DNA of 18,502 bases. Origin: a virus. The DNA lies in the UHGV virus genome UHGV-1351447, one strand, 5' to 3'. Both the position numbers and the translations under genes were made by a program. The notes beneath the pieces were generated by a model, which worked only from the letters and a program-made list of their open reading frames with translations, did no database searches and had not been told where the DNA came from. Below are positions 1-18,502 of this stretch, piece by piece. Position 1 is the first letter of the stretch, and each line of letters starts with the position of its first letter.

Positions 1-55
1 AATTAATGAACATCGTTCATCAATGCGCGGTCAGTTTGACAATGAGGAAGGCGGC
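1..55. repeat. Left inverted terminal repeat (55 bp). It begins with the palindrome ATGAAC-ATC-GTTCAT (two 6-bp arms around a 3-bp spacer).
   Basis: Bases 1-55 are the exact reverse complement of 18448-18502. The match breaks at position 56 against 18447. Terminal repeats of this kind are the hallmark of linear, protein-primed genomes. Confidence 0.85.
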
Positions 56-1800: not shown

Positions 1801-2205
1801 ATGCCTTCGAAAAACGGCGTTTTCTACGAGTTGAAGGAATCGCCTTACTCTTTCATGTACGGAGACTGTACGTTCTTCTTCTCGTCTAGGAAGCATCTTT
1901 CCAGTTTCATGGACAAGATCTGCGTCAGAACGCAATGGCTGGACGACAGCATGGAAAAGCGTTTCCACTTCTACGTCAATATGCAGCTGGTCGCCGCGTT
2001 CCAACTGTACTTCACGGTGGAGACCAGGGGGTGCTACGTCAGATTGGAAAACGGTGAGGAGCTGACATGCAGAGAGAACCTAAGATTAAATGGACTGAAA
2101 GCCAGCGTTCGCGCCTCAACTCCGCAGTCCGAAAGTACAACAACGCCATTCGACGGGCTATGCGGGCGAATCCCGCCAACGCCCAGTTCATGCCCGAGCC
2201 GGTAA
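1801..2205 (+). CDS. Transcriptional regulator, phi29 p4-like (late-gene activator and early repressor). Its 3-prime end overlaps the terminal-protein start in another frame.
   Basis: Ribosome-binding site AAAGGAGG. The N-terminus MPSKNGVFYELKESPYSFMYGDCTFFFSS aligns with phi29 p4 MPKTQRGIYHNLKESEYVASNTDVTFFFSS. The ETRGCYVRLENGEELT segment matches EKRGFHAWLKGDNATW. It lies directly upstream of the terminal protein, as in phi29. Confidence 0.75.
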   Translation: MPSKNGVFYELKESPYSFMYGDCTFFFSSRKHLSSFMDKICVRTQWLDDSMEKRFHFYVNMQLVAAFQLYFTVETRGCYVRLENGEELTCRENLRLNGLKASVRASTPQSESTTTPFDGLCGRIPPTPSSCPSR

Positions 2206-3250
2206 GCTACAAGGAAGTCAAAGCCGAGATCAAGAGCGCGCGCGTGCTTAACAACACGGTCGCGCGCTTGCTGCGCGCTACGCGCAAAGGAGCCTTGGAC
2301 TTGACGAACGTCGGAGAGGGAGGCATTGCCACGCGCTACGAAGTGCGGGAGTTCCAGATCGCGAAATCCGTCAACGAGCGGCGCAAGTCGCTGCGGCGCA
2401 AGAAGCTGGGGATCGACTACGGCCAGACCCTGGGACGCATGGGAACGTTGCAGCAGAACAACCTCCTTCCCGACAAGCGCACCGCGCGAGACTTCTCTCC
2501 CATCGCCCTCAAGCGCTTCATCAAGCGTTACGAGGAGCTGAGCGCCGCCTTACTCTTTCATGTACGGAGACTGTACGTTCTTCTTCTCGTCTAGGAAGCA
2601 TCTTTCCAGTTTCATGGACAAGATCTGCGTCAGAACGCAATGGCTGGACGACAGCATGGAAAAGCGTTTCCACTTCTACGTCAATATGCAGCTGGTCGCC
2701 GCGTTCCAACTGTACTTCACGGTGGAGACCAGGGGGTGCTACGTCAGATTGGAAAACGGTGAGGAGCTGACATGCAGAGAGAACCTAAGATTAAATGGAC
2801 TGAAAGCCAGCGTTCGCGCCTCAACTCCGCAGTCCGAAAGTACAACAACGCCATTCGACGGGCTATGCGGGCGAATCCCGCCAACGCCCAGTTCATGCCC
2901 GAGCCGGTAAGCTACAAGGAAGTCAAAGCCGAGATCAAGAGCGCGCGCGTGCTTAACAACACGGTCGCGCGCTTGCTGCGCGCTACGCGCAAAGGAGCCT
3001 TGGACTTGACGAACGTCGGAGAGGGAGGCATTGCCACGCGCTACGAAGTGCGGGAGTTCCAGATCGCGAAATCCGTCAACGAGCGGCGCAAGTCGCTGCG
3101 GCGCAAGAAGCTGGGGATCGACTACGGCCAGACCCTGGGACGCATGGGAACGTTGCAGCAGAACAACCTCCTTCCCGACAAGCGCACCGCGCGAGACTTC
3201 TCTCCCATCGCCCTCAAGCGCTTCATCAAGCGTTACGAGGAGCTGAGCGC
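1841..3250. repeat. Perfect tandem duplication with a 705-bp period: copy 1 is 1841-2545, copy 2 is 2546-3250.
   Basis: Position x matches position x+705 at every base I checked. Track ORFs 2067..2594 and 2772..3512 are identical for their first ~160 aa; 2560..2910 equals 1801..2205 minus its first 18 aa; 2326..2541 equals 3031..3246. The boundaries are defined by t1840 against c2545 and g2547 against a3252. Confidence 0.85.
2067..2594 (+). CDS. Truncated terminal-protein paralogue made by the 705-bp duplication: terminal-protein residues 1-160 fused to a novel 15-aa tail (ALLFHVRRLYVLLLV).
   Basis: Same ribosome-binding site (GAGGAG) and the same first 160 aa as the full terminal protein at 2772. 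The reading frame crosses the duplication junction at 2545/2546 and stops at 2594. Confidence 0.5.
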   Translation: MQREPKIKWTESQRSRLNSAVRKYNNAIRRAMRANPANAQFMPEPVSYKEVKAEIKSARVLNNTVARLLRATRKGALDLTNVGEGGIATRYEVREFQIAKSVNERRKSLRRKKLGIDYGQTLGRMGTLQQNNLLPDKRTARDFSPIALKRFIKRYEELSAALLFHVRRLYVLLLV

Positions 3251-3512
3251 CACGAGTTCCTACGAAAGGCTGAACAGGTACTACAAGAACTATATCAAAG
3301 GCCTCGACACGGTGTTCGGCGGCTACTCCGAGTTCGATGCGGCTATATCGCAGATCGCGAGGAAGATCGAATCCATGATGAAGTCCAACGCGGGCAAGCT
3401 CATGGAGTTCTTCGAGTCCGGAGACGAGCTTCTGAACATCGAGTACATCTACGCGCCGGAAGACCGCGCCGACAAGATGGGCTACATCCTCGACAGATGG
3501 GCTGAGCTATGA
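2772..3512 (+). CDS. Terminal protein, the replication primer (phi29 gp3-like), 246 aa.
   Basis: Ribosome-binding site GAGGAG 7 nt before the ATG. A basic N-terminal domain. It sits immediately upstream of the protein-primed DNA polymerase with a 1-nt gap (TGA-t-ATG), as gene 3 sits next to gene 2 in phi29. Size fits (phi29 terminal protein is 266 aa). Confidence 0.7.
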   Translation: MQREPKIKWTESQRSRLNSAVRKYNNAIRRAMRANPANAQFMPEPVSYKEVKAEIKSARVLNNTVARLLRATRKGALDLTNVGEGGIATRYEVREFQIAKSVNERRKSLRRKKLGIDYGQTLGRMGTLQQNNLLPDKRTARDFSPIALKRFIKRYEELSATSSYERLNRYYKNYIKGLDTVFGGYSEFDAAISQIARKIESMMKSNAGKLMEFFESGDELLNIEYIYAPEDRADKMGYILDRWAEL

Positions 3513-3513
3513 T

Positions 3514-5202: not shown

Positions 5203-5555
5203 GCAGGTACCAACCGAGCTTGCGCGAGCTGGCCATGGAGCCGGACGAGGACAAGCGGCTCGAGATGGCCGCGCGAATCGACGAGGACGCGGCCGAGCTG
5301 GACGACCGATGGGACGAGCGCGAAGGCTGGCGAAACGAGCGCGAGGAGTGGGACGCGGAGCGCGACCGCCTGAACGCCGAGCGCGACGAGGCCATCGCCG
5401 AACGCGACCGCTACCGCGAGGAGCGCGACGAGTCGCGCCGCAAGTACGCCGACCGGTTCTTCGCCGTCGAAGGCCAGACGCTGCTTCATGTGAACGAGGC
5501 CGGCGAGGAAGTTCGGCGCGAGCCGATCCGCAGCGCCGACGAGATCTGGGATTAA
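5199..5555 (+). CDS. Head scaffolding protein (phi29 gp7-like), 118 aa.
   Basis: Ribosome-binding site AAAGGAG. The ATG overlaps the polymerase stop codon. The protein is highly charged and looks like a coiled coil rich in E, R and D (RWDEREGWRNEREEWDAERDRLNAERDEAIAERDRYREERDE). It lies just upstream of the capsid gene. Confidence 0.65.
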   Translation: MSRYQPSLRELAMEPDEDKRLEMAARIDEDAAELDDRWDEREGWRNEREEWDAERDRLNAERDEAIAERDRYREERDESRRKYADRFFAVEGQTLLHVNEAGEEVRREPIRSADEIWD

Positions 5556-5564
5556 GGAGATATT

Positions 5565-7046: not shown

Positions 7047-7059
7047 CCTATGTTCCATC

Positions 7060-7090
7060 GAGGGCGGGATTCGTTTCCCGCCCTCCTTTC
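7060..7090 (+). terminator. Hairpin GAGGGCGGGA-TTCGTT-TCCCGCCCTC followed by CTTTCC. A possible partial terminator or attenuator after the capsid gene.
   Basis: A perfect 10-bp GC-rich stem 14 nt after the capsid stop. The U-tract is weak. Capsid genes are commonly followed by leaky terminators. Confidence 0.4.
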
Positions 7091-7105
7091 CGAAGGAGGT
7101 GAGAA

Positions 7106-8731
7106 ATGTACCAGCCCAGCACGGAGATCCGCATAGGCACGGTTCCATGGAACCCGAACTACAAGCACGTTCGATGGTATCCGAACCTGAACGCCCAGAT
7201 TTCGGGCGTAGCTTCGTTCATGGACGCTCAGCGGACGATATCCACGTACACGTACCAGCGCCTTGAATCGGCTATAGACGTGGACGGCAACCCCGAGCAA
7301 TACTACAATTACAACTACGTCATGTTCCAGAACGAGAACTTCGGGACTAAGTGGTTCTACGCGTTCATCACGCGCGCAGAATACAAGACGGCTAACACCA
7401 CGCGCTTGCACTTGGAACTGGATTACGTGCAGACCTACATGTTCGACTACGACTTGAAGCCGTGCTTCGTGGAGCGCGAGCATGTGAACGACGACTCGAT
7501 AGGCGCTCACGTCAAGGACGAGGGAATAGATCCCGGCGAGCTTAAATGCACGTACTCCGTGATCGACAACGACGACATGGATTGCTACATGGTCGTTGCC
7601 AGCGCCGTGGAGCCGCTGAAGGACGGAACGTACGTCAACAACGGCGGGGACAAGTACATGGGCGTTACCAGCGGGACGAGCTTGTCGGTGTTTTTGACCG
7701 TGGACGACTTCAAGGGCTTCATGAAGGCGTTGTCCGACAACGGCCAGCAGGACGCGGTGAGCCAGGTCTACATGGTGCCGCGCGCCGCCATCCCGACTAT
7801 CGTCAAGAAGTCCGACGGGTGGGGATACTGGGTGGACTCGAACGCGGACACGCCCCAGGTAACGAAGGACTACGCGCTCGGCTTCACCAGCCTCGACGGC
7901 TACGTCCCCAAGAACAACAAGATGTTCTGCTATCCGTTCCAGTACGCTGAAGTGACCAACTTCACCGGAGCCGACCAGCAGTTCCGGCTCGAATTCTGCG
8001 GAACGCCCGGAACGCTGAGCTTGCAGAAGACCGGCGGGTGCGATGCGAACTCGCGTCTGGCCTACATCCCGCTGAACTACAACGGGGTGAACCGCTTCGT
8101 CGAAGGAGCCGTCTACTTGGAGAAGTACCCCACTTGCAACTGGGTGTACCAGGCGTTCGCCAACATGCTCGGCGCGTCCCAGGCGGACACGTCGTTCGGA
8201 TTGTCGTTCAACTCGATGAGCCAGCTGCCCTACGTGAACTCCTTCATCGACTCCACGCAGAACATCATCGGAGGGGCTCTGCAAGGCCTGTCTTCGGGAA
8301 ACGTCGCCGGGGCTGCCGCGAGCATGATCAACTCCACGATCAACGGAGCGCAAGACCTTACGAACACCTTCGCGAACTTCTCGAAAGCATCGAAGACCCC
8401 GAACACGCAGCGCGGAGGCACTAACTCGACTACCGCGCTCGTGAACTTCGGAACCTACACGATAGGCGTTCGCAAGTACACGTGCCGAGCCGAGATAGCC
8501 CGCCAGATCGACGACTTTTTGAGTGTGTACGGCTACAACGTGTCGGTCGTGAAAACACCTAACGTCACGGGGCGCGCTTCATGGAACTACGTGAAGACCG
8601 TCGCCGCGAACATGAGCGGATCGGTTCCGGCCGGATACCTGGCGATGTTCAACAGGCTGCTCGACTCCGGAGTCACGTTCTGGCACACGGACGACGTGGG
8701 CAACTACAGTTTGGGCAATGCTATAATATAA
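7106..8731 (+). CDS. Tail knob or distal tail tube protein (phi29 gp9-like), 541 aa.
   Basis: Ribosome-binding site GAAGGAGGTGAG. The segment YNYVMFQNENFGTKWFYAFITRAEYKTANTTRLHLELDYVQTYMF aligns with phi29 tail protein [43 protein letters not shown]. It lies between the capsid and portal genes, as gp9 does. Confidence 0.75.
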   Translation: MYQPSTEIRIGTVPWNPNYKHVRWYPNLNAQISGVASFMDAQRTISTYTYQRLESAIDVDGNPEQYYNYNYVMFQNENFGTKWFYAFITRAEYKTANTTRLHLELDYVQTYMFDYDLKPCFVEREHVNDDSIGAHVKDEGIDPGELKCTYSVIDNDDMDCYMVVASAVEPLKDGTYVNNGGDKYMGVTSGTSLSVFLTVDDFKGFMKALSDNGQQDAVSQVYMVPRAAIPTIVKKSDGWGYWVDSNADTPQVTKDYALGFTSLDGYVPKNNKMFCYPFQYAEVTNFTGADQQFRLEFCGTPGTLSLQKTGGCDANSRLAYIPLNYNGVNRFVEGAVYLEKYPTCNWVYQAFANMLGASQADTSFGLSFNSMSQLPYVNSFIDSTQNIIGGALQGLSSGNVAGAAASMINSTINGAQDLTNTFANFSKASKTPNTQRGGTNSTTALVNFGTYTIGVRKYTCRAEIARQIDDFLSVYGYNVSVVKTPNVTGRASWNYVKTVAANMSGSVPAGYLAMFNRLLDSGVTFWHTDDVGNYSLGNAII

Positions 8732-8745
8732 GAAAGGAGGTATGC

Positions 8746-9738
8746 ATGAACCCTATCCAATCCACTACCACCCCTTACGGCCTTCCCTGGGGCAACATGC
8801 CCAAGAACGCGCACAAATCCGCTCGAGAGCTGGACAACGTCGCCATGAACTCGCAAACGATGTTCCTCTGGCAGATGCGCCTGTACGAGCTGGCGATGAG
8901 CGTTTTCGAGTGGGAGAACCTGCCGGAGGGCATCAACGAGCGCCAGATCGAGTGGTGGCTGCTTCGCGACGGATTCTGCGTGTTCCTGCACGACGAGGAT
9001 ATCGCGCTCGACCCGATCCAGCGCAGCCCGGAAGGCTACGCCATCATGCAGTGCATGTTGGAGGGAAACTTCGACATCTACTCGCAGCCGGTGAACCGCA
9101 TAGCCTACTCGGTGATGGGGGTCAACATCCCGCTCACCATCGAGAACTCCGTCATAATCTGGAATTCGAACTTGCGCGTGCCTACCTGGTTCGCGCTCAA
9201 CATGTACGCCAAGAAGCTGTGGGCGATAGACCGGGCGATCGATGTGAACGTGTACCAGCAGAAGACCCCGCGCGTGGTGAAATGCTCGCAGAAGCAGCGC
9301 CTGAGCTTCGAGAACATGATGGCGCAGGTGGACGAGTACAAACCCCTCATCATGACGGACAAGGACTTCGACCTCGAATCCATCGACATCCTCGACAACT
9401 CGTCGCCGTACGTGGCAGAGCAGCTCTACGAGCTGAAGGACAAGTACTGGAAGGAAGCGCTGGGATTCCTCGGAATCGCCAGCTCCGAGTCCAAGTCGGA
9501 GCGCGTCATCGTGGACGAGATGCTGGCCAGCCTCGGCGGCACGGAGGCGCAGCGGCTGTGCCGCCTCGAATCCCGGCAGTTCGCGTGCAAGCAGATAAAC
9601 GAGATCTTCGGTCTTGACGTTGACGTTCATTTCCGCGTGTCGGAGAAACGCCAAGAAGAGCAGTGGGCTGTCGCCGACGGCGAATTCAATGAAAGCGAGT
9701 ACGCCGAGGAGAACGGGATCGAGGTGAACGGAGAATGA
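8746..9738 (+). CDS. Portal, the upper collar connector (phi29 gp10-like), 331 aa. The true start is the ATG at 8746, not 8581.
   Basis: Ribosome-binding site AAAGGAGG at 8733-8740. VFEWENLPEGIN matches phi29 gp10 LFEWENLPPTIN. NVYQQKTPRVVK matches NQNAQKTPVLIR. KQINEIFGLDVDVHFR matches KINELYGLNVKVKFR. The acidic C-terminus also matches. Confidence 0.88.
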   Translation: MNPIQSTTTPYGLPWGNMPKNAHKSARELDNVAMNSQTMFLWQMRLYELAMSVFEWENLPEGINERQIEWWLLRDGFCVFLHDEDIALDPIQRSPEGYAIMQCMLEGNFDIYSQPVNRIAYSVMGVNIPLTIENSVIIWNSNLRVPTWFALNMYAKKLWAIDRAIDVNVYQQKTPRVVKCSQKQRLSFENMMAQVDEYKPLIMTDKDFDLESIDILDNSSPYVAEQLYELKDKYWKEALGFLGIASSESKSERVIVDEMLASLGGTEAQRLCRLESRQFACKQINEIFGLDVDVHFRVSEKRQEEQWAVADGEFNESEYAEENGIEVNGE

Positions 9739-10409
9739 GCAAGTACAGCTTGCAGCTTCGCTGGCTGGTCGAACAGACGCTTGCAAACGGCGGCTGGGAC
9801 TTGCACGAGGACAACTGGAACAACGCCTACGACAAGCTGGGCTTGGCCGACTACCCGATCTTCGACGAAGCGTACCGCGAGACGCTGAACAACAAGATAA
9901 TACGCCATTACTGGATGTACGAGATCGGTTCCGAAACCGCCGGCCTTTTCCGCTGGAACCTGCGCGACGCTATGTTCATGGTCATGCCGTACTACAATCA
10001 GATGTATCTGTCGGAGATCACGGCGAAGGGGATCCAGCCGCTCATCGACCACACGCGGACGATCACGGAAGACGCGACCGGCACCGCCTCCAACAACGCG
10101 AACACGAGCGCGACATCTACCAGCAACGCGCAGGACATTTTCAGCGACACTCCGATGTCGGCGCTCAACTTCGACAACATCAAGGCGGGCAACTACGCGT
10201 CCACGGCGGACTTCACCGATGCTTCCACGACGGATTCCGGAAAGTCGGATTCGAGCGGCATGTACGACAACAAGCTGTCGCGCACGGAAACCGGGCACGA
10301 CAAAGCGGAATCCGAACTGCTCTTGATTTGGCGAGACACGTTCGTTAATATAGACCGTGACATAGTGGAAGACAAAGCGCTGCGCGAATGCTTCATGACG
10401 ATATGGTAA
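9735..10409 (+). CDS. Lower collar protein (gp11-like), 224 aa. The call rests on position only.
   Basis: Its ATG overlaps the portal stop (ATGA), and GGAGA serves as a ribosome-binding site. It is directly downstream of the connector, as in phi29. A Ser, Thr, Asn-rich loop (TGTASNNANTSATSTSNAQ) is consistent with a tube-forming loop. No sequence I could match from memory. Confidence 0.45.
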   Translation: MSKYSLQLRWLVEQTLANGGWDLHEDNWNNAYDKLGLADYPIFDEAYRETLNNKIIRHYWMYEIGSETAGLFRWNLRDAMFMVMPYYNQMYLSEITAKGIQPLIDHTRTITEDATGTASNNANTSATSTSNAQDIFSDTPMSALNFDNIKAGNYASTADFTDASTTDSGKSDSSGMYDNKLSRTETGHDKAESELLLIWRDTFVNIDRDIVEDKALRECFMTIW

Positions 10410-10419
10410 GGAGGAGCGC

Positions 10420-10878
10420 ATGAACCAGCCGACACCGGATGTAGCGCCGTTTCGCTACTACGTGCAAATGGTTCTGCCGGCCGTCTACGGCGACGAGCTG
10501 AGCTATTACGAGGTGCTTGCCAAGGTGACCGAGAAGCTGAACGAGGTCATCGAGAATTTGAACAAGCAGGGTCAGAACGTGAACGACCTGATGGCGTTCT
10601 ACAACCAGCTGAAAGCGCAGGTGGACGCGCTTGAAAACGAGGTCGATGCTATCAAGAACGGCGAGTACGTGCATCTGTACCTCGATTCCATCATAAACTG
10701 GATCGATGCGAACCTGCAGTGCCTGGTGGCCAGGATCGTCAAGTTCGTGTGCTTCGGGCTTGGCGACGACGGCCATTTCAAGGCGTACATCCCCGCTACC
10801 TGGCAGTTCTTGCAGTTCGACACGGGAATGAACCCGGACGACTCGACCACGTACGGGCATCTCATCATCAAATGGTAA
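10420..10878 (+). CDS. Structural hypothetical protein, 152 aa, with a coiled coil. Possibly an appendage adaptor or neck component.
   Basis: Ribosome-binding site AAGGAGG. It sits in the late structural block between collar and tailspike. The heptad-like segment is KLNEVIENLNKQGQNVNDLMAFYNQLKAQVDALENEVDAIKN. Confidence 0.5.
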   Translation: MNQPTPDVAPFRYYVQMVLPAVYGDELSYYEVLAKVTEKLNEVIENLNKQGQNVNDLMAFYNQLKAQVDALENEVDAIKNGEYVHLYLDSIINWIDANLQCLVARIVKFVCFGLGDDGHFKAYIPATWQFLQFDTGMNPDDSTTYGHLIIKW

Positions 10879-10889
10879 AGGAGAGAATC

Positions 10890-12518
10890 ATGGCAGAATC
10901 CACGAAGAACATGACGGTGGGCGCGGGAAGCGCGAGCGCGAGCGTCACCGCCACCGTCACCGACCAGATGCCGGGCGTTCCCTGCCCGACGACTCCGGGT
11001 TTCACCTATACCGGAATGCGCTACGTTCCGGTGTTCGCAGACCCGCCGGAATGGTCTAGCGCGAACAGCTACGAGCCGTTGGAGATCGTCATCCACGAGG
11101 GGAATTCCTACACGTCCAAGACTTTCGTCCCCGTCGGCATCGACATCGCGAATTCACAGTACTGGGTGCTTACGGGCAACTACGATGCGCAAGTAGAACA
11201 GTATCGACAGGAAGTAGCAAAGCTTTCTAGAGACGTGGGAGAGCTGGAGAAGTCGGTTTCTTATCTGGATAATTTCAATGTGCCAGAGCAATTCGGAGCC
11301 GTTGGAAATGGAATCGCAGACGACACGGTGGCCATTAGAAGCTGGCTGCAAAGCGGCGAATCGCTGGCTTTGAAGCCCGGTAAAACCTATTTGACTGATT
11401 CTATCACCGTGTCGTCTGCGGTTAAAGTGATCTTGGGATTCAATGCCACTCTGAAATTCAATCCTAATCAAGCTAATGCCTGTGTCGTGATAGATTCCGC
11501 TAGGTGCGATATCCAGGGAATCACGATAGATTGCAACGGAAACGGAATAGGAGTCACTTCGCAAGCAACGCGCTGCACCATATCGAAATCACAAATATTG
11601 AATTTCACGCGGATAGGCCTGCAAACCCTAACCGGGACGACTTCTGGGTATGAGGCAGTGTTCGATACTCTTTATATCGTGGCTGCGGACAAAGCAGATT
11701 ACGGCGTGTATGTTAAACGTGCCGATTGCATCTTCAATAATGTAGTGACTCAAGATTGCATGACTGCTTTTAGATTTGATCAGGGTTCCGCGCTTATAAG
11801 CAATTTGCATTCATGGAATCGTGCGGTACATGCTACCGAAGAATCGGTGATGTTCTCGATTTTCACGCCCGATGTTATCCTGGCGAATAACGTGTATTGC
11901 GATACGATCAAATATCTGATTAACGTTCCGACAACTGTAACCCCCACCGCGACTATAACAGTTAAAAACGCTCTCATGCTGGCACCGAAAGGGTTCGTTC
12001 AGTTCATCTGCAAAACCTATTCGGGGGCGACCAACACATACGGCGTGCACGTTCAATACAATAATTTTCCGGGCAGGAACCCGAAAACCTTTAACGTGAG
12101 CGCGTTTCAAGGTATCGCGGAAAGCATGATCAGGGTGGCAGATGGATCAGAAGTTCTTGCCCCGACTTATACTTCAATGAGGAACACGATAGGATGGGGC
12201 TTCAAACCAGGACTCGTGAATACGCCGAATACCGGAATGAGCGTGTACCGCCAACTGTTGAACATAGGCTATATCGGATACTTCGATCTTACCTCTACGA
12301 CTGAAATCACGCCTTCAGACGGATATGTTGCAATCGGAAACATGCCTCCGGTTTCTTCTACTGAAACAGGTCTTCGAACTGTTGGATTCTGCAAAGTGGG
12401 GGATGAAATGAGGGTTATAGCGTTTGATTATTCAGATAAAACGGTTAAAGTCGAAGCAAGCGCCAATATTCCGGCGAAAACGCGGATAGCCGGCAACGTG
12501 TTCTTTTCCATGTACTAG
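10890..12518 (+). CDS. Tailspike, or pre-neck appendage (gp12-like): a conserved N-terminal anchor, then a coiled coil, then a pectate-lyase-superfamily right-handed beta-helix depolymerase. 543 aa.
   Basis: Ribosome-binding site AAAGGAGAG with the ATG at 10890. The track ORF 10719 is an N-terminal extension of this frame. FGAVGNGIADDTVAIRSWLQSG matches the pectate-lyase-3 (GH28-like) beta-helix N-cap motif (YGAKGDGVTDDTAAIQAAI). Repetitive beta-strand segments follow. Confidence 0.75.
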   Translation: MAESTKNMTVGAGSASASVTATVTDQMPGVPCPTTPGFTYTGMRYVPVFADPPEWSSANSYEPLEIVIHEGNSYTSKTFVPVGIDIANSQYWVLTGNYDAQVEQYRQEVAKLSRDVGELEKSVSYLDNFNVPEQFGAVGNGIADDTVAIRSWLQSGESLALKPGKTYLTDSITVSSAVKVILGFNATLKFNPNQANACVVIDSARCDIQGITIDCNGNGIGVTSQATRCTISKSQILNFTRIGLQTLTGTTSGYEAVFDTLYIVAADKADYGVYVKRADCIFNNVVTQDCMTAFRFDQGSALISNLHSWNRAVHATEESVMFSIFTPDVILANNVYCDTIKYLINVPTTVTPTATITVKNALMLAPKGFVQFICKTYSGATNTYGVHVQYNNFPGRNPKTFNVSAFQGIAESMIRVADGSEVLAPTYTSMRNTIGWGFKPGLVNTPNTGMSVYRQLLNIGYIGYFDLTSTTEITPSDGYVAIGNMPPVSSTETGLRTVGFCKVGDEMRVIAFDYSDKTVKVEASANIPAKTRIAGNVFFSMY

Positions 12519-12529
12519 GAAGCAATAAG

Positions 12530-12895
12530 ATGGCTGCCGAACCGACAGGCGGGGGAAACCCCAACTTCTTCAAGACCTTCAAGGGGGCGTATGTCCACGC
12601 CCCCTCCCCTGAAGCGATGTTCACCAGCGAGCGGGTCATGCTGTCCTGCGTGAACGACGTGCAGTTCCAAGGCGACTGCATGATCATGAACTACACGCCG
12701 GGCGCGACGCTCACGACGCTGCCTCCGGAATGCCGGCCGTCGACCGAGGTTCGCGTTCCCGTGGTCGTGGATACGCGCCTTGACGTGCTGGCGGTGCAGA
12801 CGAACGGGGTCGTTTCCCTGAACGCCTCCACCGACGGCATGGTGTATCTGGCGGGACTGTCCTTCAATATAAGCATGAACTGGTATTCTAATTAG
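12530..12895 (+). CDS. Hypothetical protein, 121 aa, downstream of the tailspike. Possibly a tailspike-associated factor or a beta-sandwich protein.
   Basis: An AGGAAG-like ribosome-binding site 5 nt before the ATG. High-GC coding composition. No motif recognised. Confidence 0.45.
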   Translation: MAAEPTGGGNPNFFKTFKGAYVHAPSPEAMFTSERVMLSCVNDVQFQGDCMIMNYTPGATLTTLPPECRPSTEVRVPVVVDTRLDVLAVQTNGVVSLNASTDGMVYLAGLSFNISMNWYSN

Positions 12896-12907
12896 GCGGA
12901 ATCAAAG

Positions 12908-13086
12908 ATGGATGTTAACGATATTGTCACTCTTATTGGTAGTCTGGGCTTCCCTATTGTGGCTTGCGTGGGCATGTTTTACCTGTACAATCGTACTCTT
13001 AAGGACTTTACTAGCACACTTAGCGACATTGCGAGCGAGATTAGGGAGCTACGGGAAGAACTTAAAGAGCTGATCAAGAATGCTTA
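12908..13086 (+). CDS. Putative holin, 59 aa: one transmembrane helix and a charged, coiled C-terminus. Not in the ORF track.
   Basis: Sequence MDVNDIVTLIGSLGFPIVACVGMFYLYNRTLKDFTSTLSDIASEIRELREELKELIKNA. The hydrophobic core is IVTLIGSLGFPIVACVGMFYLY. It is AT-rich. It overlaps the GH25 lysozyme gene by 7 nt. Confidence 0.55.
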
Positions 13087-13754
13087 GGGGAATCGACATA
13101 TCCAACTGGCAAGCAGGGTTGGATGCGGATGCGGTGTTTCCCAACGTGGACTTCGTGATCTGCAAGGCTACCGAGGGCGTGGGTTTCGTGGACGGGTACT
13201 GCGACAGCTGGGTGCAGTGGTGCCGCGCTCACGGAAAGCCGTGGGGGTTCTACCACTTCGCGAATGGCAATGCGCCCGCTAAGGAAGCCGCGTACTTCAT
13301 CAACAACACCAGCAACTATTTCGGCGAGGGCGTGCCGGTGCTTGACTGGGAGGGCGACCAATCGGTTGACTGGGTGAACGAGTTCGTGAAGATCGTCCAC
13401 GATCAGACGGGAATCTGGCCTTGGATCTACGCCAACCCATGGCGCTTCAACCAGGGCGGCGTGGAGCAGAACTGCATGCGCTGGATCGCGAGCTATCCGG
13501 ACGTGCTTCGCCCAGGCCTCGACTTCGACCCTGGCGAGCCTCCGGAGACGGACGGGCTTGTGGGATGCTGGCAGTACGCGTCCGACGGACAGGTGCCCGG
13601 ATATGCCGGGAACCTGGATGTGAATCACTTCTTCGGGAGCGTCGGCGCATGGTCGGCGTACACGGGTGTTCCGTCTTCGGGACAACCTTCTGAACCGACT
13701 GGTCAGTCGGTTTTGGAGAACGATAGATTCCGCGTGACAATTGACGAGAAGTGA
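13080..13754 (+). CDS. Endolysin, a GH25 muramidase (lysozyme), 224 aa.
   Basis: The N-terminus GIDISNWQ is the GH25 (Cpl-1 or Cellosyl-type) signature, followed by the family's DFVICKATEG and WGFYHF blocks. It sits immediately after the holin. Confidence 0.85.
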   Translation: MLRGIDISNWQAGLDADAVFPNVDFVICKATEGVGFVDGYCDSWVQWCRAHGKPWGFYHFANGNAPAKEAAYFINNTSNYFGEGVPVLDWEGDQSVDWVNEFVKIVHDQTGIWPWIYANPWRFNQGGVEQNCMRWIASYPDVLRPGLDFDPGEPPETDGLVGCWQYASDGQVPGYAGNLDVNHFFGSVGAWSAYTGVPSSGQPSEPTGQSVLENDRFRVTIDEK

Positions 13755-13762
13755 TGTATGAT
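13734..13762 (+). promoter_or_regulatory. Candidate promoter gTGACA-17-TATGAT overlapping the lysozyme stop codon, predicted start site near 13769.
   Basis: GTGACA at 13734-13739, a 17-nt spacer, then TATGAT at 13757-13762. Each box matches consensus at 5 of 6 positions. Confidence 0.35.
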
Positions 13763-13765
13763 GGT

Positions 13766-13936
13766 TATGCGCCGGAAAGCAAGCTATCTTCTGCGTCTGT
13801 GGGGCACCCGGTGAAACGGGCACGGGCGCATACGGAGAACAGCCCCCTCTGTGATAGTCTTTTCGGTTAGCGCCCTTTGACTTAGCCCCTGTCGCTTGGA
13901 CATCCATGATGGCAGGGGCTTCTTCGATAAAGGGCG
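13766..13936 (+). ncRNA. Candidate structured RNA in the intergenic region upstream of the packaging-ATPase operon. It could be a pRNA-like molecule or a structured leader.
   Basis: A 208-bp gap in an otherwise tightly packed genome. Domain 1: an 8-bp stem TATGCGCC (13766-13773) pairs with GGCGCATA (13825-13832) and encloses the hairpin CCCG-GTGAAA-CGGG (13807-13820). Domain 2: an 8-bp stem CGCCCTTT (13871-13878) pairs with AAAGGGCG (13929-13936) and encloses a nested 8-bp stem AGCCCCTG (13884-13891) pairing with CAGGGGCT (13913-13920), which contains small inner hairpins. Confidence 0.3.
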
Positions 13937-13962
13937 GGCATTCCAAGTCAAAGGAGGAACCC

Positions 13963-14154
13963 ATGAAATTAAGAGAGATTTGCAATCTAATAGGCGATGA
14001 TGAAGTTATAATCTGCTGTGATGGGTTCGATATCAGGATCATTGCAAATGATGTCAATGATAATCAGTTTACGTCTCCATTTTCAACTGAAGACGTGGTG
14101 AATCTAAAGGCTGTATACAATGACAGCGTTTGCGCTATAGTGGTGTATATTTGA
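13963..14154 (+). CDS. Small hypothetical protein, 64 aa, AT-rich, translationally coupled to the packaging ATPase.
   Basis: Ribosome-binding site AAGGAGG at 13951-13957 with the ATG at 13963. Its TGA overlaps the ATPase ATG (TGATG at 14152-14156). Sequence MKLREICNLIGDDEVIICCDGFDIRIIANDVNDNQFTSPFSTEDVVNLKAVYNDSVCAIVVYI. The track ORF 13906..14154 is an N-terminal extension. Confidence 0.5.
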   Translation: MKLREICNLIGDDEVIICCDGFDIRIIANDVNDNQFTSPFSTEDVVNLKAVYNDSVCAIVVYI

Positions 14155-15164
14155 TGGCTAAATACTGGGACATATCCAAGACGCTATCGTACAACTGCCT
14201 GTTCAATTTCATCTACGGAATCCGAGGTGCTGGAAAGACGTACACGGGGTTGCAGCACTACGTCAAGCGCTACCTGCGCACGGGACGGCGCTTCATGTAC
14301 CTTCGTCGCACGGAGGAGGAGCTGAAAAACCTGACCACCCGCAAGGACGGTAGGCTGTTCAACCACGTGCAAAAGGAGTTCCCGGGGCATGCGCTCTGGG
14401 CTGAATCCAACATCCTGCATATCGACAAGGAGATATGCGGGTACGCGCAAGCGCTGTCAACGGCGCGCAAGCTCAAGTCCGACGCGCTGGACAACGTGGA
14501 CACTATCCTGTTCGACGAGTTCGTCATCGACAAGGGGTTCCAAACGTACCTTCCCGACGAGGTGACGGCGTTCTTGGAGCTTTACGAAACCATCGCCCGT
14601 CCTGGCTCTCGTGACTACGACGTTACCTGCATGTTCTGGGGAAACGCAGTGACATCGGCGAACCCCTACATGGACTACTTCAAGCTGGAGCTTCCCTACA
14701 AAACCGACGTGTGGAGGCGCGGCGAGTTCCTGACGCAGATGGTAGCGCCGCCCGAGCTGATCGAGGCGAAGAAGGGCACGCGCTTCTACCAGGCGATAGC
14801 GGGCAGCGATTACGCGGCGTACGCGGCCGAGAACAAGTGGTTGCGGGACAACCCGAAGTTCATCGCGAGAAAAGGCAAGAATGCCGAATACCAGTTCACG
14901 CTCCTTTACTACGACGATGCTATCGGAATATGGCGCGACAACCGAAACGGTTGCTATTACGTGTCGGAAGACGTTGACCGCCAGTGCCGCCACGTGTTCG
15001 CCGCCACGACGGAAGACCATGAGCCGAACACCCTGCTCCTCAAAGGCTTCAAATCCTCGCCCCATTTGGCTAACCTGAAAAAGGCGTACGACATGGGGTG
15101 CGTTCGGTACGAGTCGATGAAGCTCAACAACTGGTTCAGGGATATAGTTAGGATGGGATTGTAA
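14154..15164 (+). CDS. DNA-packaging (encapsidation) ATPase (phi29 gp16-like), copy 1, 336 aa from the ATG at 14154.
   Basis: Walker A motif GIRGAGKTY (phi29 GARGIGKSY). TLSYNCLFNFIYG matches MLSYDRILNFVIG. Walker B ILFDEFV matches IVFDEFI. GNAVTSANPY matches SNAVSVVNPY. The track start at 14130 is an upstream TTG. Confidence 0.88.
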   Translation: MAKYWDISKTLSYNCLFNFIYGIRGAGKTYTGLQHYVKRYLRTGRRFMYLRRTEEELKNLTTRKDGRLFNHVQKEFPGHALWAESNILHIDKEICGYAQALSTARKLKSDALDNVDTILFDEFVIDKGFQTYLPDEVTAFLELYETIARPGSRDYDVTCMFWGNAVTSANPYMDYFKLELPYKTDVWRRGEFLTQMVAPPELIEAKKGTRFYQAIAGSDYAAYAAENKWLRDNPKFIARKGKNAEYQFTLLYYDDAIGIWRDNRNGCYYVSEDVDRQCRHVFAATTEDHEPNTLLLKGFKSSPHLANLKKAYDMGCVRYESMKLNNWFRDIVRMGL

Positions 15165-15385
15165 TGAATATGGAAAAATGTACCCAAAAACTGAATGACA
15201 TGGGGTATGAAGGATTGGCAGAAGCGCTGTACTATCTTTATGAAAAATCAAGCGAATTGGATAAGCGAACGATTCTTGGAATCACCAAACTTGCTGTGAA
15301 GAATATCGACAAGTACGAAGAAGAACATAGAATCCTTTATGGATTTTTGGATGCGCATATAACAGGAGTGATCACCCGTGGCTGA
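15164..15385 (+). CDS. Hypothetical protein, 73 aa, AT-rich island, copy 1.
   Basis: Its ATG overlaps the ATPase stop (TAATG). Lys and Glu-rich helical sequence MNMEKCTQKLNDMGYEGLAEALYYLYEKSSELDKRTILGITKLAVKNIDKYEEEHRILYGFLDAHITGVITRG. GC is far below that of its neighbours. Confidence 0.5.
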   Translation: MNMEKCTQKLNDMGYEGLAEALYYLYEKSSELDKRTILGITKLAVKNIDKYEEEHRILYGFLDAHITGVITRG

Positions 15386-15977
15386 ACCGGTAATCATTAA
15401 CGCGACCAAGCAAGGCGGCGTGGAGAACGCATATATCGGCACCATCGGAAACGACGGCTACATCTACTTCAACGACGTGGACTTCTACCGCTTCAAGAAC
15501 GAGGGCACGTGGGAGAACAACGTATACGTGCTGAACCGTACTCGCCATTCTTGGACGAAGACGACGATGTTCACGAAGATCAGCGCGCAGAATCTGAACT
15601 CAGGCTCCGGCAGCGTGGCACCCGGAGGATCGGGCGTGGAGGGCGCGTGCCTGTGGGCAGTGGGAATCGCCGACGACAACAGCCACGGATACGACCAGCC
15701 GACGCGGGACGGCGGCGTGGACTTCGACTGCTCAAGTCTTGTGTCCTGGGCGTTCCGCGAGAACGGATGGGACGTTCCGTTCCCCTCTCCTTCTACCTAC
15801 AACATGTCCAGCGTGTTCACGGGGCTTGGGTTCAAACGCTACAATGGGAACCCGGCAGCGTCCGATTTGGTGCGAGGGGACATCGAATCTGCTGTGATGG
15901 GTTCGATATCAGGATCATTGCAAATGATGTCAATGATAATCAGTTTACGTCTCCATTTTCAACTGAAGACGTGGTGA
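15378..15977 (+). pseudogene. Truncated copy of the NlpC/P60 hydrolase gene: residues 1-168 fused at the duplication junction to a 31-aa out-of-frame tail.
   Basis: Identical to the 17254 ORF through DLVRGDI. It then diverges exactly at 15885/15886 into ESAVMGSISGSLQMMSMIISLRLHFQLKTW. The His-containing C-terminal half of the catalytic domain is missing. Confidence 0.6.
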
Positions 15978-16029
15978 ATCTAAAGGCTGTATACAATGAC
16001 AGCGTTTGCGCTATAGTGGTGTATATTTG

Positions 16030-17040
16030 ATGGCTAAATACTGGGACATATCCAAGACGCTATCGTACAACTGCCTGTTCAATTTCATCTACGGAATCCG
16101 AGGTGCTGGAAAGACGTACACGGGGTTGCAGCACTACGTCAAGCGCTACCTGCGCACGGGACGGCGCTTCATGTACCTTCGTCGCACGGAGGAGGAGCTG
16201 AAAAACCTGACCACCCGCAAGGACGGTAGGCTGTTCAACCACGTGCAAAAGGAGTTCCCGGGGCATGCGCTCTGGGCTGAATCCAACATCCTGCATATCG
16301 ACAAGGAGATATGCGGGTACGCGCAAGCGCTGTCAACGGCGCGCAAGCTCAAGTCCGACGCGCTGGACAACGTGGACACTATCCTGTTCGACGAGTTCGT
16401 CATCGACAAGGGGTTCCAAACGTACCTTCCCGACGAGGTGACGGCGTTCTTGGAGCTTTACGAAACCATCGCCCGTCCTGGCTCTCGTGACTACGACGTT
16501 ACCTGCATGTTCTGGGGAAACGCAGTGACATCGGCGAACCCCTACATGGACTACTTCAAGCTGGAGCTTCCCTACAAAACCGACGTGTGGAGGCGCGGCG
16601 AGTTCCTGACGCAGATGGTAGCGCCGCCCGAGCTGATCGAGGCGAAGAAGGGCACGCGCTTCTACCAGGCGATAGCGGGCAGCGATTACGCGGCGTACGC
16701 GGCCGAGAACAAGTGGTTGCGGGACAACCCGAAGTTCATCGCGAGAAAAGGCAAGAATGCCGAATACCAGTTCACGCTCCTTTACTACGACGATGCTATC
16801 GGAATATGGCGCGACAACCGAAACGGTTGCTATTACGTGTCGGAAGACGTTGACCGCCAGTGCCGCCACGTGTTCGCCGCCACGACGGAAGACCATGAGC
16901 CGAACACCCTGCTCCTCAAAGGCTTCAAATCCTCGCCCCATTTGGCTAACCTGAAAAAGGCGTACGACATGGGGTGCGTTCGGTACGAGTCGATGAAGCT
17001 CAACAACTGGTTCAGGGATATAGTTAGGATGGGATTGTAA
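16030..17040 (+). CDS. DNA-packaging ATPase, copy 2. Identical to 14154..15164.
   Basis: Identical at every position. It is preceded only by the 3-prime fragment (48 codons) of the 64-aa coupling ORF, so its translation-initiation context differs from copy 1. Confidence 0.8.
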   Translation: MAKYWDISKTLSYNCLFNFIYGIRGAGKTYTGLQHYVKRYLRTGRRFMYLRRTEEELKNLTTRKDGRLFNHVQKEFPGHALWAESNILHIDKEICGYAQALSTARKLKSDALDNVDTILFDEFVIDKGFQTYLPDEVTAFLELYETIARPGSRDYDVTCMFWGNAVTSANPYMDYFKLELPYKTDVWRRGEFLTQMVAPPELIEAKKGTRFYQAIAGSDYAAYAAENKWLRDNPKFIARKGKNAEYQFTLLYYDDAIGIWRDNRNGCYYVSEDVDRQCRHVFAATTEDHEPNTLLLKGFKSSPHLANLKKAYDMGCVRYESMKLNNWFRDIVRMGL

Positions 17041-17261
17041 TGAATATGGAAAAATGTACCCAAAAACTGAATGACATGGGGTATGAAGGATTGGCAGAAG
17101 CGCTGTACTATCTTTATGAAAAATCAAGCGAATTGGATAAGCGAACGATTCTTGGAATCACCAAACTTGCTGTGAAGAATATCGACAAGTACGAAGAAGA
17201 ACATAGAATCCTTTATGGATTTTTGGATGCGCATATAACAGGAGTGATCACCCGTGGCTGA
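17040..17261 (+). CDS. Hypothetical protein, 73 aa, copy 2. Identical to 15164..15385.
   Basis: Identical duplicate within the 1876-bp repeat. Confidence 0.5.
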   Translation: MNMEKCTQKLNDMGYEGLAEALYYLYEKSSELDKRTILGITKLAVKNIDKYEEEHRILYGFLDAHITGVITRG

Positions 17262-17955
17262 ACCGGTAATCATTAACGCGACCAAGCAAGGCGGCGTGGA
17301 GAACGCATATATCGGCACCATCGGAAACGACGGCTACATCTACTTCAACGACGTGGACTTCTACCGCTTCAAGAACGAGGGCACGTGGGAGAACAACGTA
17401 TACGTGCTGAACCGTACTCGCCATTCTTGGACGAAGACGACGATGTTCACGAAGATCAGCGCGCAGAATCTGAACTCAGGCTCCGGCAGCGTGGCACCCG
17501 GAGGATCGGGCGTGGAGGGCGCGTGCCTGTGGGCAGTGGGAATCGCCGACGACAACAGCCACGGATACGACCAGCCGACGCGGGACGGCGGCGTGGACTT
17601 CGACTGCTCAAGTCTTGTGTCCTGGGCGTTCCGCGAGAACGGATGGGACGTTCCGTTCCCCTCTCCTTCTACCTACAACATGTCCAGCGTGTTCACGGGG
17701 CTTGGGTTCAAACGCTACAATGGGAACCCGGCAGCGTCCGATTTGGTGCGAGGGGACATCGTTCTGTTCGAGGGCGACATATCGGCGGGCACCGGGCACG
17801 TGGAGCTGTACCTCGGAGACGGCATCCTCGTGGGCGCTCATATCAACGAGTTCGGGGGCGTGGCGGGAGGGCAGCCGGGCGACCAGACCGGGAACGAAAT
17901 ATCGACCGGCGGGTATTATAGGAGCTGGAACTGTTGGCTCAGATGGGAGGGTTAG
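17254..17955 (+). CDS. NlpC/P60-family cell-wall endopeptidase, 233 aa, GTG start. Probably a virion- or tail-associated lysin, the functional analogue of phi29 gp13.
   Basis: Ribosome-binding site AGGAGTG precedes the GTG. FDCSSLVSWAF carries the catalytic Cys motif (NlpC/P60 DCSGLV). GHVELYLGDG carries the catalytic His motif. The N-terminal ~100 aa form a separate domain. The gene lies outside the holin-lysozyme cassette. Confidence 0.7.
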   Translation: MAEPVIINATKQGGVENAYIGTIGNDGYIYFNDVDFYRFKNEGTWENNVYVLNRTRHSWTKTTMFTKISAQNLNSGSGSVAPGGSGVEGACLWAVGIADDNSHGYDQPTRDGGVDFDCSSLVSWAFRENGWDVPFPSPSTYNMSSVFTGLGFKRYNGNPAASDLVRGDIVLFEGDISAGTGHVELYLGDGILVGAHINEFGGVAGGQPGDQTGNEISTGGYYRSWNCWLRWEG

Positions 17956-17956
17956 G

Positions 17957-18037
17957 ATGCTGTCGCATTATATTGCACTTGTAGTGGGCACTATGTTAGG
18001 TATCGCTATTATGTGTCTGGTGAGCAGTAATAAATGA
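17957..18037 (+). CDS. Tiny hydrophobic peptide, 26 aa (MLSHYIALVVGTMLGIAIMCLVSSNK). Tentative.
   Basis: Ribosome-binding site GGGAGGG at 17945-17951, and the ATG is 1 nt after the hydrolase stop. A single membrane-spanning stretch. Its TGA stop lies inside the internal copy of the terminal 20-mer. Confidence 0.25.
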   Translation: MLSHYIALVVGTMLGIAIMCLVSSNK

Positions 18038-18053
18038 ACGATGTTCATTAATT
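18034..18053. repeat. Internal third copy of the terminal 20-mer ATGAACGATGTTCATTAATT, in the same orientation as the right end.
   Basis: Identical to 18483-18502 and to the reverse complement of 1-20. It contains the ATGAAC-GAT-GTTCAT palindrome. It lies 449 bp inside the right terminus. Confidence 0.8.
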
Positions 18054-18086
18054 GCAATTATCGCAAAAATTATCACTTGCTTGTTG

Positions 18087-18092
18087 TATAAT
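18087..18092 (+). promoter_or_regulatory. Candidate -10 box TATAAT driving the right-end small membrane-protein ORF. The -35 is weak.
   Basis: Consensus hexamer 43 nt upstream of the ATG at 18135. The upstream region is AT-rich. No good -35 (CAAAAA at 17 nt spacing). Confidence 0.3.
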
Positions 18093-18134
18093 GCAATTGT
18101 AGGGATAAGTCGAAGGGTGAATGGAGGAATTGAC

Positions 18135-18311
18135 ATGTTTCTAGAGCTTCCGGAATTTGCGTGGTTCGTGATCGGCGTTATAGTTGTGGCAGTGCTGGTT
18201 ACCGTGGCGAATTGGTATATCATGTACTGCGTGTTCGACTGGGCAGTGCATCATGTAAAGCATGTTTGGTTGGAAGAGCCTACGGATGCGATTGACATTA
18301 AGGAAAGCTAA
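18135..18311 (+). CDS. Small membrane protein, 58 aa, with one N-terminal transmembrane helix. Holin-like, or a membrane-anchor analogue of phi29 p16.7. Function unknown.
   Basis: Ribosome-binding site GGAGG 7 nt before the ATG at 18135. The track ORF 18081..18311 is an N-terminal extension. Sequence MFLELPEFAWFVIGVIVVAVLVTVANWYIMYCVFDWAVHHVKHVWLEEPTDAIDIKES. Confidence 0.45.
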   Translation: MFLELPEFAWFVIGVIVVAVLVTVANWYIMYCVFDWAVHHVKHVWLEEPTDAIDIKES

Positions 18312-18447
18312 TATCCTAAGCCCATTAAAAGAGAAATTTCTGATGAAGAATATGAGAATTGGGAAAAATGGATGGATTACTTGGAGGATAGACGTAAGGA
18401 TGCATGAGGAGCAGATAGTTGCGTGCTTGTTTAAGGCGGTCATTTTG

Positions 18448-18502
18448 GCCGCCTTCCTCATTGTCAAACTGACCGCGCATTGATGAACGATGTTCATTAA
18501 TT
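18448..18502. repeat. Right inverted terminal repeat (55 bp).
   Basis: Exact reverse complement of 1-55. Confidence 0.85.

Follow-up and report, generated by a model that had tools for sequence, protein, structure and literature searches.

The 18,502-nucleotide stretch of DNA analyzed here, which we refer to as the window, is the genome of an Eggerthella podophage of the LE1-1-like type (Guelinviridae), which is common in the human gut and has phi29-type protein-primed replication. It contains two perfect tandem duplications, of 1876 bp and 705 bp, and we infer that these are probably an artifact of record construction, the most likely of the readings considered, rather than a feature of the phage. 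The comparative evidence, namely that many samples yield identical genomes with single copies and that no junction trace turned up elsewhere, favors an artifact over a real duplication.

The main value of this result lies in quality control. Taken at face value, the record would inflate the genome by 2.6 kb and add three false genes, namely a second packaging ATPase, a truncated lysin, and a truncated terminal-protein-like gene, thereby misleading comparisons of gene content and genome size for an Eggerthella phage that is very common in the human gut.

Anatomy of the two tandem repeats

Self-comparison of the window reveals that positions 14010-15885 (copy 1) and 15886-17761 (copy 2), both on the plus strand, are the same 1876 bp arranged head-to-tail with 0 mismatches, as a previous sequence-only reading had proposed; a repeat this long cannot have arisen by chance. 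The copies meet at one novel junction, 15885/15886, located at the start of copy 2, where ...GGGGACATCG is directly followed by AATCTGCTGTG... (with longer flanks, GTGCGAGGGGACATCG followed by AATCTGCTGTGATGGG). The junction had been described as blunt and free of microhomology, and indeed the match extends 0 bases on either side, which corresponds to 0 bp of microhomology.

The 1876-bp unit starts at 14010, inside a 63-aa ORF (13963..14154, plus strand, 63 aa and a stop) for which gene calls in wild-type contigs likewise give 63 aa. This ORF ends in TGATG, so that its stop overlaps the ATG of the packaging ATPase at 14154. The first ATPase copy (14154..15164, plus strand) encodes a 336-aa gp16-like protein that matches PF05894 (Podovirus_Gp16, E=8e-63) and carries the Walker A motif GIRGAGKT and the Walker B motif ILFDEF, and the coding sequence of the second copy (16030..17040, plus strand) is identical. 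Similarly, a 73-aa AT-rich ORF with a GC content of ~0.40 and no match in Pfam is located at 15164..15385 and repeated at 17040..17261, both on the plus strand. The two intact ATPase genes and two 73-aa ORFs reported earlier are therefore present as claimed. The second ATPase was also said to lose its coupled upstream ORF, and this is the case: upstream of it, both the start of the small ORF and its Shine-Dalgarno site are missing.

The product of the 1876-bp junction is a 199-aa lysin fusion (15378..15977, plus strand), composed of lysin residues 1-169 and 30 out-of-frame residues translated from the 3' portion of the 63-aa ORF, and its stop lies 53 nt before the ATG of ATPase copy 2. The earlier account of this product as a truncated fusion without the His region was accurate, as it keeps the motif DCSSLVSW, which contains the catalytic Cys, and loses GHVELY. 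The intact tail lysin, a 233-aa NlpC/P60 and ELLD protein with a GTG start and matches to both NLPC_P60 and ELLD, is encoded at 17254..17955 on the plus strand, and the exact 233-aa protein is present in single-copy 15.9-kb contigs.

A further perfect tandem duplication, absent from the earlier note, is located in the same window and involves two plus-strand copies of a 705-bp unit, at 1841..2545 and 2546..3250. Its junction, 2545/2546 (ACGAGGAGCTGAGCGC followed by CGCCTTACTCTTTCAT), has 1 bp of microhomology. The unit begins within the gene for a phi29 p4-like late-gene activator, of which an intact 134-aa version is encoded at 1801..2205 (plus strand; PF05464, E=5.7e-13), and the duplication yields a 144-aa junction product (2160..2594, plus strand) that is a truncated copy of a 215-aa gene. 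The intact 215-aa gene (2865..3512, plus strand) lies directly upstream of the DNA polymerase, is also 215 aa long in wild-type contigs, has no Pfam match, and is presumed, by position only, to encode the terminal protein. Microhomology of 0 and 1 bp at the two junctions is the amount expected from random breakpoints, and we count it, along with the occurrence of two perfect tandem duplications in a single 18.5-kb record, in favor of an artifact.

Single-copy genomes of the same strain

Removal of both extra copies leaves 15,921 bp. Independent contigs of at least 10 samples are colinear with this sequence at 99.95-100% identity, and all of them continue without interruption across the single-copy boundaries. 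When the de-duplicated window is compared with Logan contigs from several unrelated samples, 0-7 mismatches are found over 11-14.5 kb. For instance, the SRR18842544 contig, which recurs as the same contig in 5 samples, has 0 mismatches over 11,224 bp, and the SRR9161501 contig has 1 mismatch over 14,472 bp. The contigs of SRR12791892 and SRR22410977 are colinear with the de-duplicated window, and fragments from SRR9161558, SRR9161559, SRR22410973, and SRR22410976 show 0-3 mismatches to it.

Four of these Logan contigs, SRR18842544_1720, SRR9161501_27726, and SRR12791892_1153 (each 15,871 bp) and SRR22410977_1227 (15,983 bp), represent the same strain, being 99.95-100% identical to the de-duplicated window, and share its gene order and its alleles of the 63-aa ORF, the ATPase, the 73-aa ORF, and the 233-aa lysin; unlike the window, they contain a single 1876-bp unit and a single 705-bp unit. 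They are also short of 25 nt at either end, as the assembly graph is interrupted within the inverted terminal repeat (ITR), and 15,871 bp is accordingly the length expected from a k=31 graph for a 15,921-bp genome with 55-bp ITRs. The 15,871-bp contigs are unbroken across all four wild-type boundaries. Since junction k-mers at appreciable coverage would break the de Bruijn graph at these positions, this continuity is counted for an artifact.

Perfect repeats collapse in short-read assemblies, so a duplicated minority variant elsewhere could go unseen. None of the contig breakpoints in the four fragmented assemblies named above falls at a unit boundary: the closest lies 14 nt away, in a contig (L023) that starts at window position 1855/2560, and the fragmented same-strain contigs pass through the other unit boundaries.

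Searches for the junctions agree with the single-copy contigs. The 32-mers of both junctions are absent from IMG/VR and the JGI metagenomes, and a 24-mer spanning the 1876-bp junction is absent from the GTDB genomes; together with the 58 related ATPase loci described below, these independent assemblies provide no support for the junction. Neither the 199-aa lysin fusion, nor the 144-aa truncated terminal-protein-like product, nor a 116-aa p4 fragment has an exact-sequence record among 153 billion gene positions, whereas that collection does include the intact forms of the lysin, ATPase, and polymerase. A 55-aa peptide across the 1876-bp junction retrieved no candidates from a large protein collection, a result of little weight, as the wild-type lysin was not recovered there either.

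Related phages display the same single-copy arrangement. In tblastn searches, one ATPase copy is found in 58 out of 58 related loci containing the gene, and two are found in the window only. Out of 63 fetched loci, one (L035) has an exact direct repeat of at least 60 bp, and this repeat involves the contig end there. Eggerthella phage LE1-1 (MW679025.1, Guelinviridae), whose host is Eggerthella lenta DSM 2243, shares the phi29-like gene order of the window and matches 87% of it at 92.9% identity. It differs in its length of 15,977 bp, with both segments single-copy; its lysin allele encodes 390 aa, an ORF of 82 aa replaces the 73-aa ORF, and its receptor-binding gene is another allele.

The relatives also bear on the idea that the duplication was selected for higher ATPase dosage, or that it represents an initial stage on the way to two packaging ATPases that diverge, which we consider highly improbable. 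The presence of two intact ATPase coding sequences is consistent with such selection. Against it, the gene is under extreme purifying selection, besides being single-copy in every related locus that contains it, and the two copies in the window exhibit zero divergence and no sign of sub-functionalization. Additionally, translational coupling is lost at the second copy, and the unit boundaries cut two other genes, unlike a selected gene duplication.

Genome ends and packaging size

The 55-bp ITRs at 1..55 and 18448..18502, which match each other perfectly, mark a complete, linear, protein-primed genome. In profile searches, the window matches PF05894 and PF05464 from the set expected of phi29-like podophages, and contigs encoding the identical polymerase also carry PF03175, PF25622, PF05352, and PF16838 with PF20934. 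The ITR-bearing linear genome is thus accompanied by a family B protein-primed polymerase, a gp16-type ATPase, a connector, a phi29-type major capsid protein, and a p4-like activator. An Rfam scan of the window returned nothing relevant to the repeat and no pRNA match at E<=1, although a divergent pRNA could escape the Rfam model.

At 18,502 bp, the record is 116% of the 15,921 bp of the same strain and is longer than every relative seen; close relatives reach at most ~17.0 kb, and a clade with 66% ATPase identity reaches at most 17.6 kb. The sequence-only reading argued that packaging of this type, not being headful, tolerates extra DNA. We find this logic to be reversed: a unit-length packager lacks terminal redundancy that it could forgo, and its capsid has to accommodate the entire molecule. 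As the literature offered no direct figure for a firm upper packaging limit of phi29-type capsids, the capsid argument draws on the size range of relatives. The T=4 capsids of other small podophages (P68 and Andhra) hold 18.2-18.5 kb, and 18.5 kb is therefore not clearly impossible physically.

These sizes bear on whether the duplications are real and very recent events in a viable, packaged phage, with the 18.5-kb form confined to a single sample or lab stock, a scenario that we regard as unlikely. Such a variant would carry two ATPase genes and a separately duplicated p4/terminal-protein segment, and it could have originated through illegitimate (non-homologous) recombination or through a template switch in the course of protein-primed replication. 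In the record, the repeat is unambiguous, and the 17.6 kb mentioned above for a more distant clade within this phage group means that the capsid may have some room. The ITR ends are clean and complete, which speaks for careful assembly and to that extent against an artifact, and each interrupted gene retains one intact copy, which would leave the genome genetically viable, as holds for any tandem duplication, whether genuine or spurious.

Phages lambda, T4, and T7 provide classical cases of tandem duplication, which are head-to-tail, span a few kb, arise through illegitimate recombination, and preserve one intact copy per gene. They are usually recovered by selecting for more DNA in deletion mutants, are unstable, and stay within the capsid limit (~105% in lambda), whereas in the window there is no deletion to compensate and the total amounts to 116% in a phage that is obliged to package the whole molecule. 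A real origin would further require that a single 16-kb genome underwent two fresh events independently of each other, each with zero divergence, and the persistence of 1.9-kb direct repeats, which are quickly lost through homologous recombination. The junctions are also missing from at least 10 samples with the same strain at the identity given above, as well as from every collection searched. Moreover, the proteins encoded across the junctions would probably do harm, given that a Cys-only lysin could still enter tails and that a truncated terminal-protein-like fragment would be made.

For the 18.5-kb molecule to be real and packaged, a phi29-type gut phage with unit-length packaging would have to tolerate a 16% expansion from two fresh non-homologous tandem duplications, and this seems doubtful to us. 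If it were true, the molecule would offer a snapshot of gene duplication, including that of the packaging ATPase, in a family whose genomes are otherwise tightly held at ~16 kb, and it would inform on spare capsid capacity and on the origin of gene duplications in protein-primed phages. We found no support here for an informative real duplication of this kind.

Proposed routes to the duplicated record

For an artifact of record construction, the simplest mechanism, and the one we favor overall, is that three overlapping pieces, corresponding to 1-2545, 2546-15885, and 15886-18502, were joined end to end with their overlaps untrimmed, and these overlaps would be the 705 bp and 1876 bp that appear twice. 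Equivalently, an assembler might have gone twice round two false loops made by chimeric reads. Either route would lead to head-to-tail copies with zero divergence and blunt junctions at arbitrary intragenic positions, and to two events in one small record whose genome is otherwise unchanged.

The window has much in common with false duplications in assemblies, of which Rhie et al. (10.1101/2020.05.22.110833) reportedly give an example in genome assemblies, due to unmerged overlaps or falsely retained copies. Adjacent identical copies with zero divergence, arbitrary blunt breakpoints, and more than one event per record are all observed, as are gene "gains" that other assemblies of this phage lack, and removal of the extra copies restores the independently assembled sequence. 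This class is known mostly from large eukaryotic long-read assemblies and is defined by read depth, whereas the present case concerns a 16-kb phage and sequence alone.

The junctions might instead be real in minority molecules, such as aberrant replication products, defective genomes, or chimeras from MDA or PCR library preparation, with the assembler threading each loop once into a consensus; no packaged molecule would then contain both duplications, and perhaps none would contain either. This would explain how an assembler could output read-supported junctions while the single-copy genome dominates elsewhere, and amplification by phi29 polymerase, a common step in virome preparation, generates chimeras. 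MDA chimeras are reportedly the subject of one preprint (10.64898/2026.06.11.730069). On the other side, both separate loops would have to survive graph cleaning, and chimeras formed in MDA are mostly inverted and not direct. We consider this origin rather improbable.

The sequence-only reading had offered either a very recent event or an assembly or concatemer artifact. In view of the single-copy genomes elsewhere and the missing junction trace, the assembly artifact is the part that we favor, and the concatemer does not stand. Concatemer or circular-closure artifacts were rejected, as both repeats lie in the interior of the genome, the 55-bp ITRs at its two ends are intact, and concatemers are not formed in protein-primed replication. 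An assembly-graph loop derived from strain mosaicism was likewise rejected, since it would either produce diverged copies or need bridging sequence, and here two identical copies abut at a blunt junction.

Gene content of the two tandem duplications

Comparison of the window with itself confirmed the perfect 1876-bp tandem duplication described in the sequence-only reading: 14010-15885 and 15886-17761 show 0 mismatches, and the junction (...GGGGACATCG|AATCTGCTGTG...) is blunt because the match extends 0 bases to either side. The gene anatomy proposed for this unit also held when ORFs, profile matches and coordinates were checked. A 63-aa ORF (13963-14154) ends in TGATG and overlaps the start of the first ATPase copy (14154-15164; 336 aa; PF05894 Podovirus_Gp16, E=8e-63). 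The second ATPase copy (16030-17040) is intact, and both are directly followed by a 73-aa ORF with a GC content of about 0.40 (e.g., 15164-15385). The intact 233-aa lysin (17254-17955) matches NLPC_P60 and ELLD. Its first copy is, as had been claimed, truncated without the His region, being a 199-aa out-of-frame fusion (15378-15977) that keeps the Cys motif and loses the GHVELY region. The stop of this fusion ORF lies 53 nt upstream of the second ATPase start; that copy therefore lacks translational coupling, in agreement with the proposed loss of its coupled upstream ORF.

Additionally, the window contains a second perfect tandem duplication that was overlooked in that reading (1841-2545 and 2546-3250; 705 bp, divisible by 3; junction microhomology of 1 bp). 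This unit starts within a gene for a phi29 p4-like activator (1801-2205; PF05464) and ends within a 215-aa gene adjoining the DNA polymerase on its upstream side, which, from its position, we presume to encode the terminal protein. Together, the two duplications add 2,581 bp.

Single-copy forms in independent contigs and relatives

With each unit reduced to a single copy, the sequence is 15,921 bp long, a form that is colinear with independently assembled contigs at 99.95-100% identity. For instance, the contig of sample SRR18842544 (L014), found identically in 5 samples, has 0 mismatches over 11,224 bp, and that of SRR9161501 (L025) has 1 over 14,472 bp; SRR22410977 (L012) differs at 3 positions over 11,249 bp, and SRR12791892 at 7 in both L024 (14,472 bp) and L013 (11,224 bp). 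Similarly, fragments from SRR9161558, SRR9161559 and SRR22410976 (L015, L016, L023, L027, L028) show 0 mismatches, and one from SRR22410973 (L026) shows 3 over 12,123 bp. The full contigs measure 15,871 bp, that is, 15,921 minus 25 nt per end, which we infer to be the expected k=31 de Bruijn graph output for a genome with 55-bp inverted terminal repeats. All of them contain the wild-type (single-copy) boundary strings and none contains the duplication junctions; junction k-mers at appreciable depth would branch the graph, breaking contigs at the unit boundaries.

Neither junction 32-mer was found in IMG/VR or in JGI metagenome contigs, nor was a 24-mer spanning the 1876-bp junction found in GTDB genomes. 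The junction proteins that were looked up (the 199-aa lysin fusion, a 144-aa truncated terminal-protein-like product and a 116-aa p4 fragment) are not on record, unlike the lysin, ATPase and polymerase in their intact forms. When the 63 fetched loci were screened for exact direct repeats of at least 60 bp, only L035 had one, and it involves the contig end. The nearest annotated genome, Eggerthella phage LE1-1 (MW679025.1, Guelinviridae, 15,977 bp; 92.9% identity over 87% of the window), has both segments in single copy, in contrast to two copies each in the window; no wild-type contig of the window's own strain carries the 705-bp duplication either. The phage is abundant in the gut; the assembly collection has the exact ATPase protein in 1,320 of its blocks, and the contigs listed, of 15.6-16.4 kb, each carry one ATPase gene. 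By tblastn, all 58 related loci having the gene carry one ATPase copy, and only the window carries two. Selection for ATPase dosage is a highly improbable origin of the duplication, fitting poorly with this strict single-copy state, with the lost coupling of the second copy and with the cut neighbouring genes.

Origin of the duplications and genome size

The sequence-only reading had entertained a very recent biological duplication, which is not supported, given the single-copy contigs of the same strain and junctions found nowhere else searched; the likeliest reading is that the feature is not real. We consider it probable that both duplications are artefacts of sequence construction, false duplications being a recognised class of assembly error. 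Overlapping pieces (1-2545, 2546-15885 and 15886-18502) may have been concatenated with their overlaps of 705 and 1876 bp left untrimmed, a single cause that would cover both. Such joining would yield head-to-tail copies with zero divergence and blunt junctions at arbitrary intragenic positions, leaving the rest of the genome untouched; an assembler traversing two false loops made by chimeric reads would produce the same picture. A pair of real, private and very recent duplications is unlikely, as it requires two independent events, a 16% oversize, escape from rapid loss by recombination and tolerance of junction products that are probably harmful. It is quite unlikely that the junctions are real and come from minority or chimeric molecules threaded into the consensus.

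The record, at 18,502 bp, is 116.2% as long as the genome of its own strain. In IMG/VR, close relatives do not exceed about 17.0 kb, and genomes of up to 17.6 kb occur in a clade whose ATPase is 66% identical. The earlier argument that non-headful packaging tolerates an extra 1.9 kb reverses the logic: protein-primed phages such as phi29 package one complete terminal-protein-capped molecule, so the capsid has to take in the full length, and no terminal redundancy is available to offset additional DNA. Other small podophages accommodate 18.2-18.5 kb in T=4 capsids, and size alone therefore does not refute a real duplication.

Genome ends and variable genes

The window, a complete linear genome, is bounded on both sides by a perfect 55-bp inverted terminal repeat. 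Its terminal 20 nt, ATGAACGATGTTCATTAATT (6-20 and 18483-18502), recur at 18034-18053, 449 bp from the right end, and this internal copy is kept in LE1-1 and many relatives. The element holds the palindrome ATGAAC-N3-GTTCAT (3 sites in the window versus 0.03 expected) and may be a candidate binding site that the origins of replication share with a regulatory region inside the genome. Directly 3' of the lysin, a 26-aa hydrophobic ORF (17958-18037; MLSHYIALVVGTMLGIAIMCLVSSNK) ends just before the internal copy and could encode a small membrane peptide. In an Rfam scan, the whole window matched neither the phage pRNA family nor another RNA family with an E-value under 0.5; if the phage uses a phi29-like packaging RNA, that RNA may be too divergent for the current Rfam model.

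Across L002-L062, the related loci, the ATPase protein (14154-15164) is 100% identical between contigs that diverge by about 6% in DNA sequence (55-76 nt and 0-2 amino acid differences), and the gene is under unusually strong purifying selection. The phage population is modular at 10719-12518, 15164-15385 and 17254-17955. The tail/receptor-binding gene (10719-12518), which follows a 152-aa gene, has several unrelated alleles in relatives, which are GDSL lipase, End_N_terminal-like, pectate-lyase-like or domainless; the 73-aa AT-rich ORF takes the place of an 82-aa ORF, and the lysin has 233 aa in the window versus 390 aa in most relatives.
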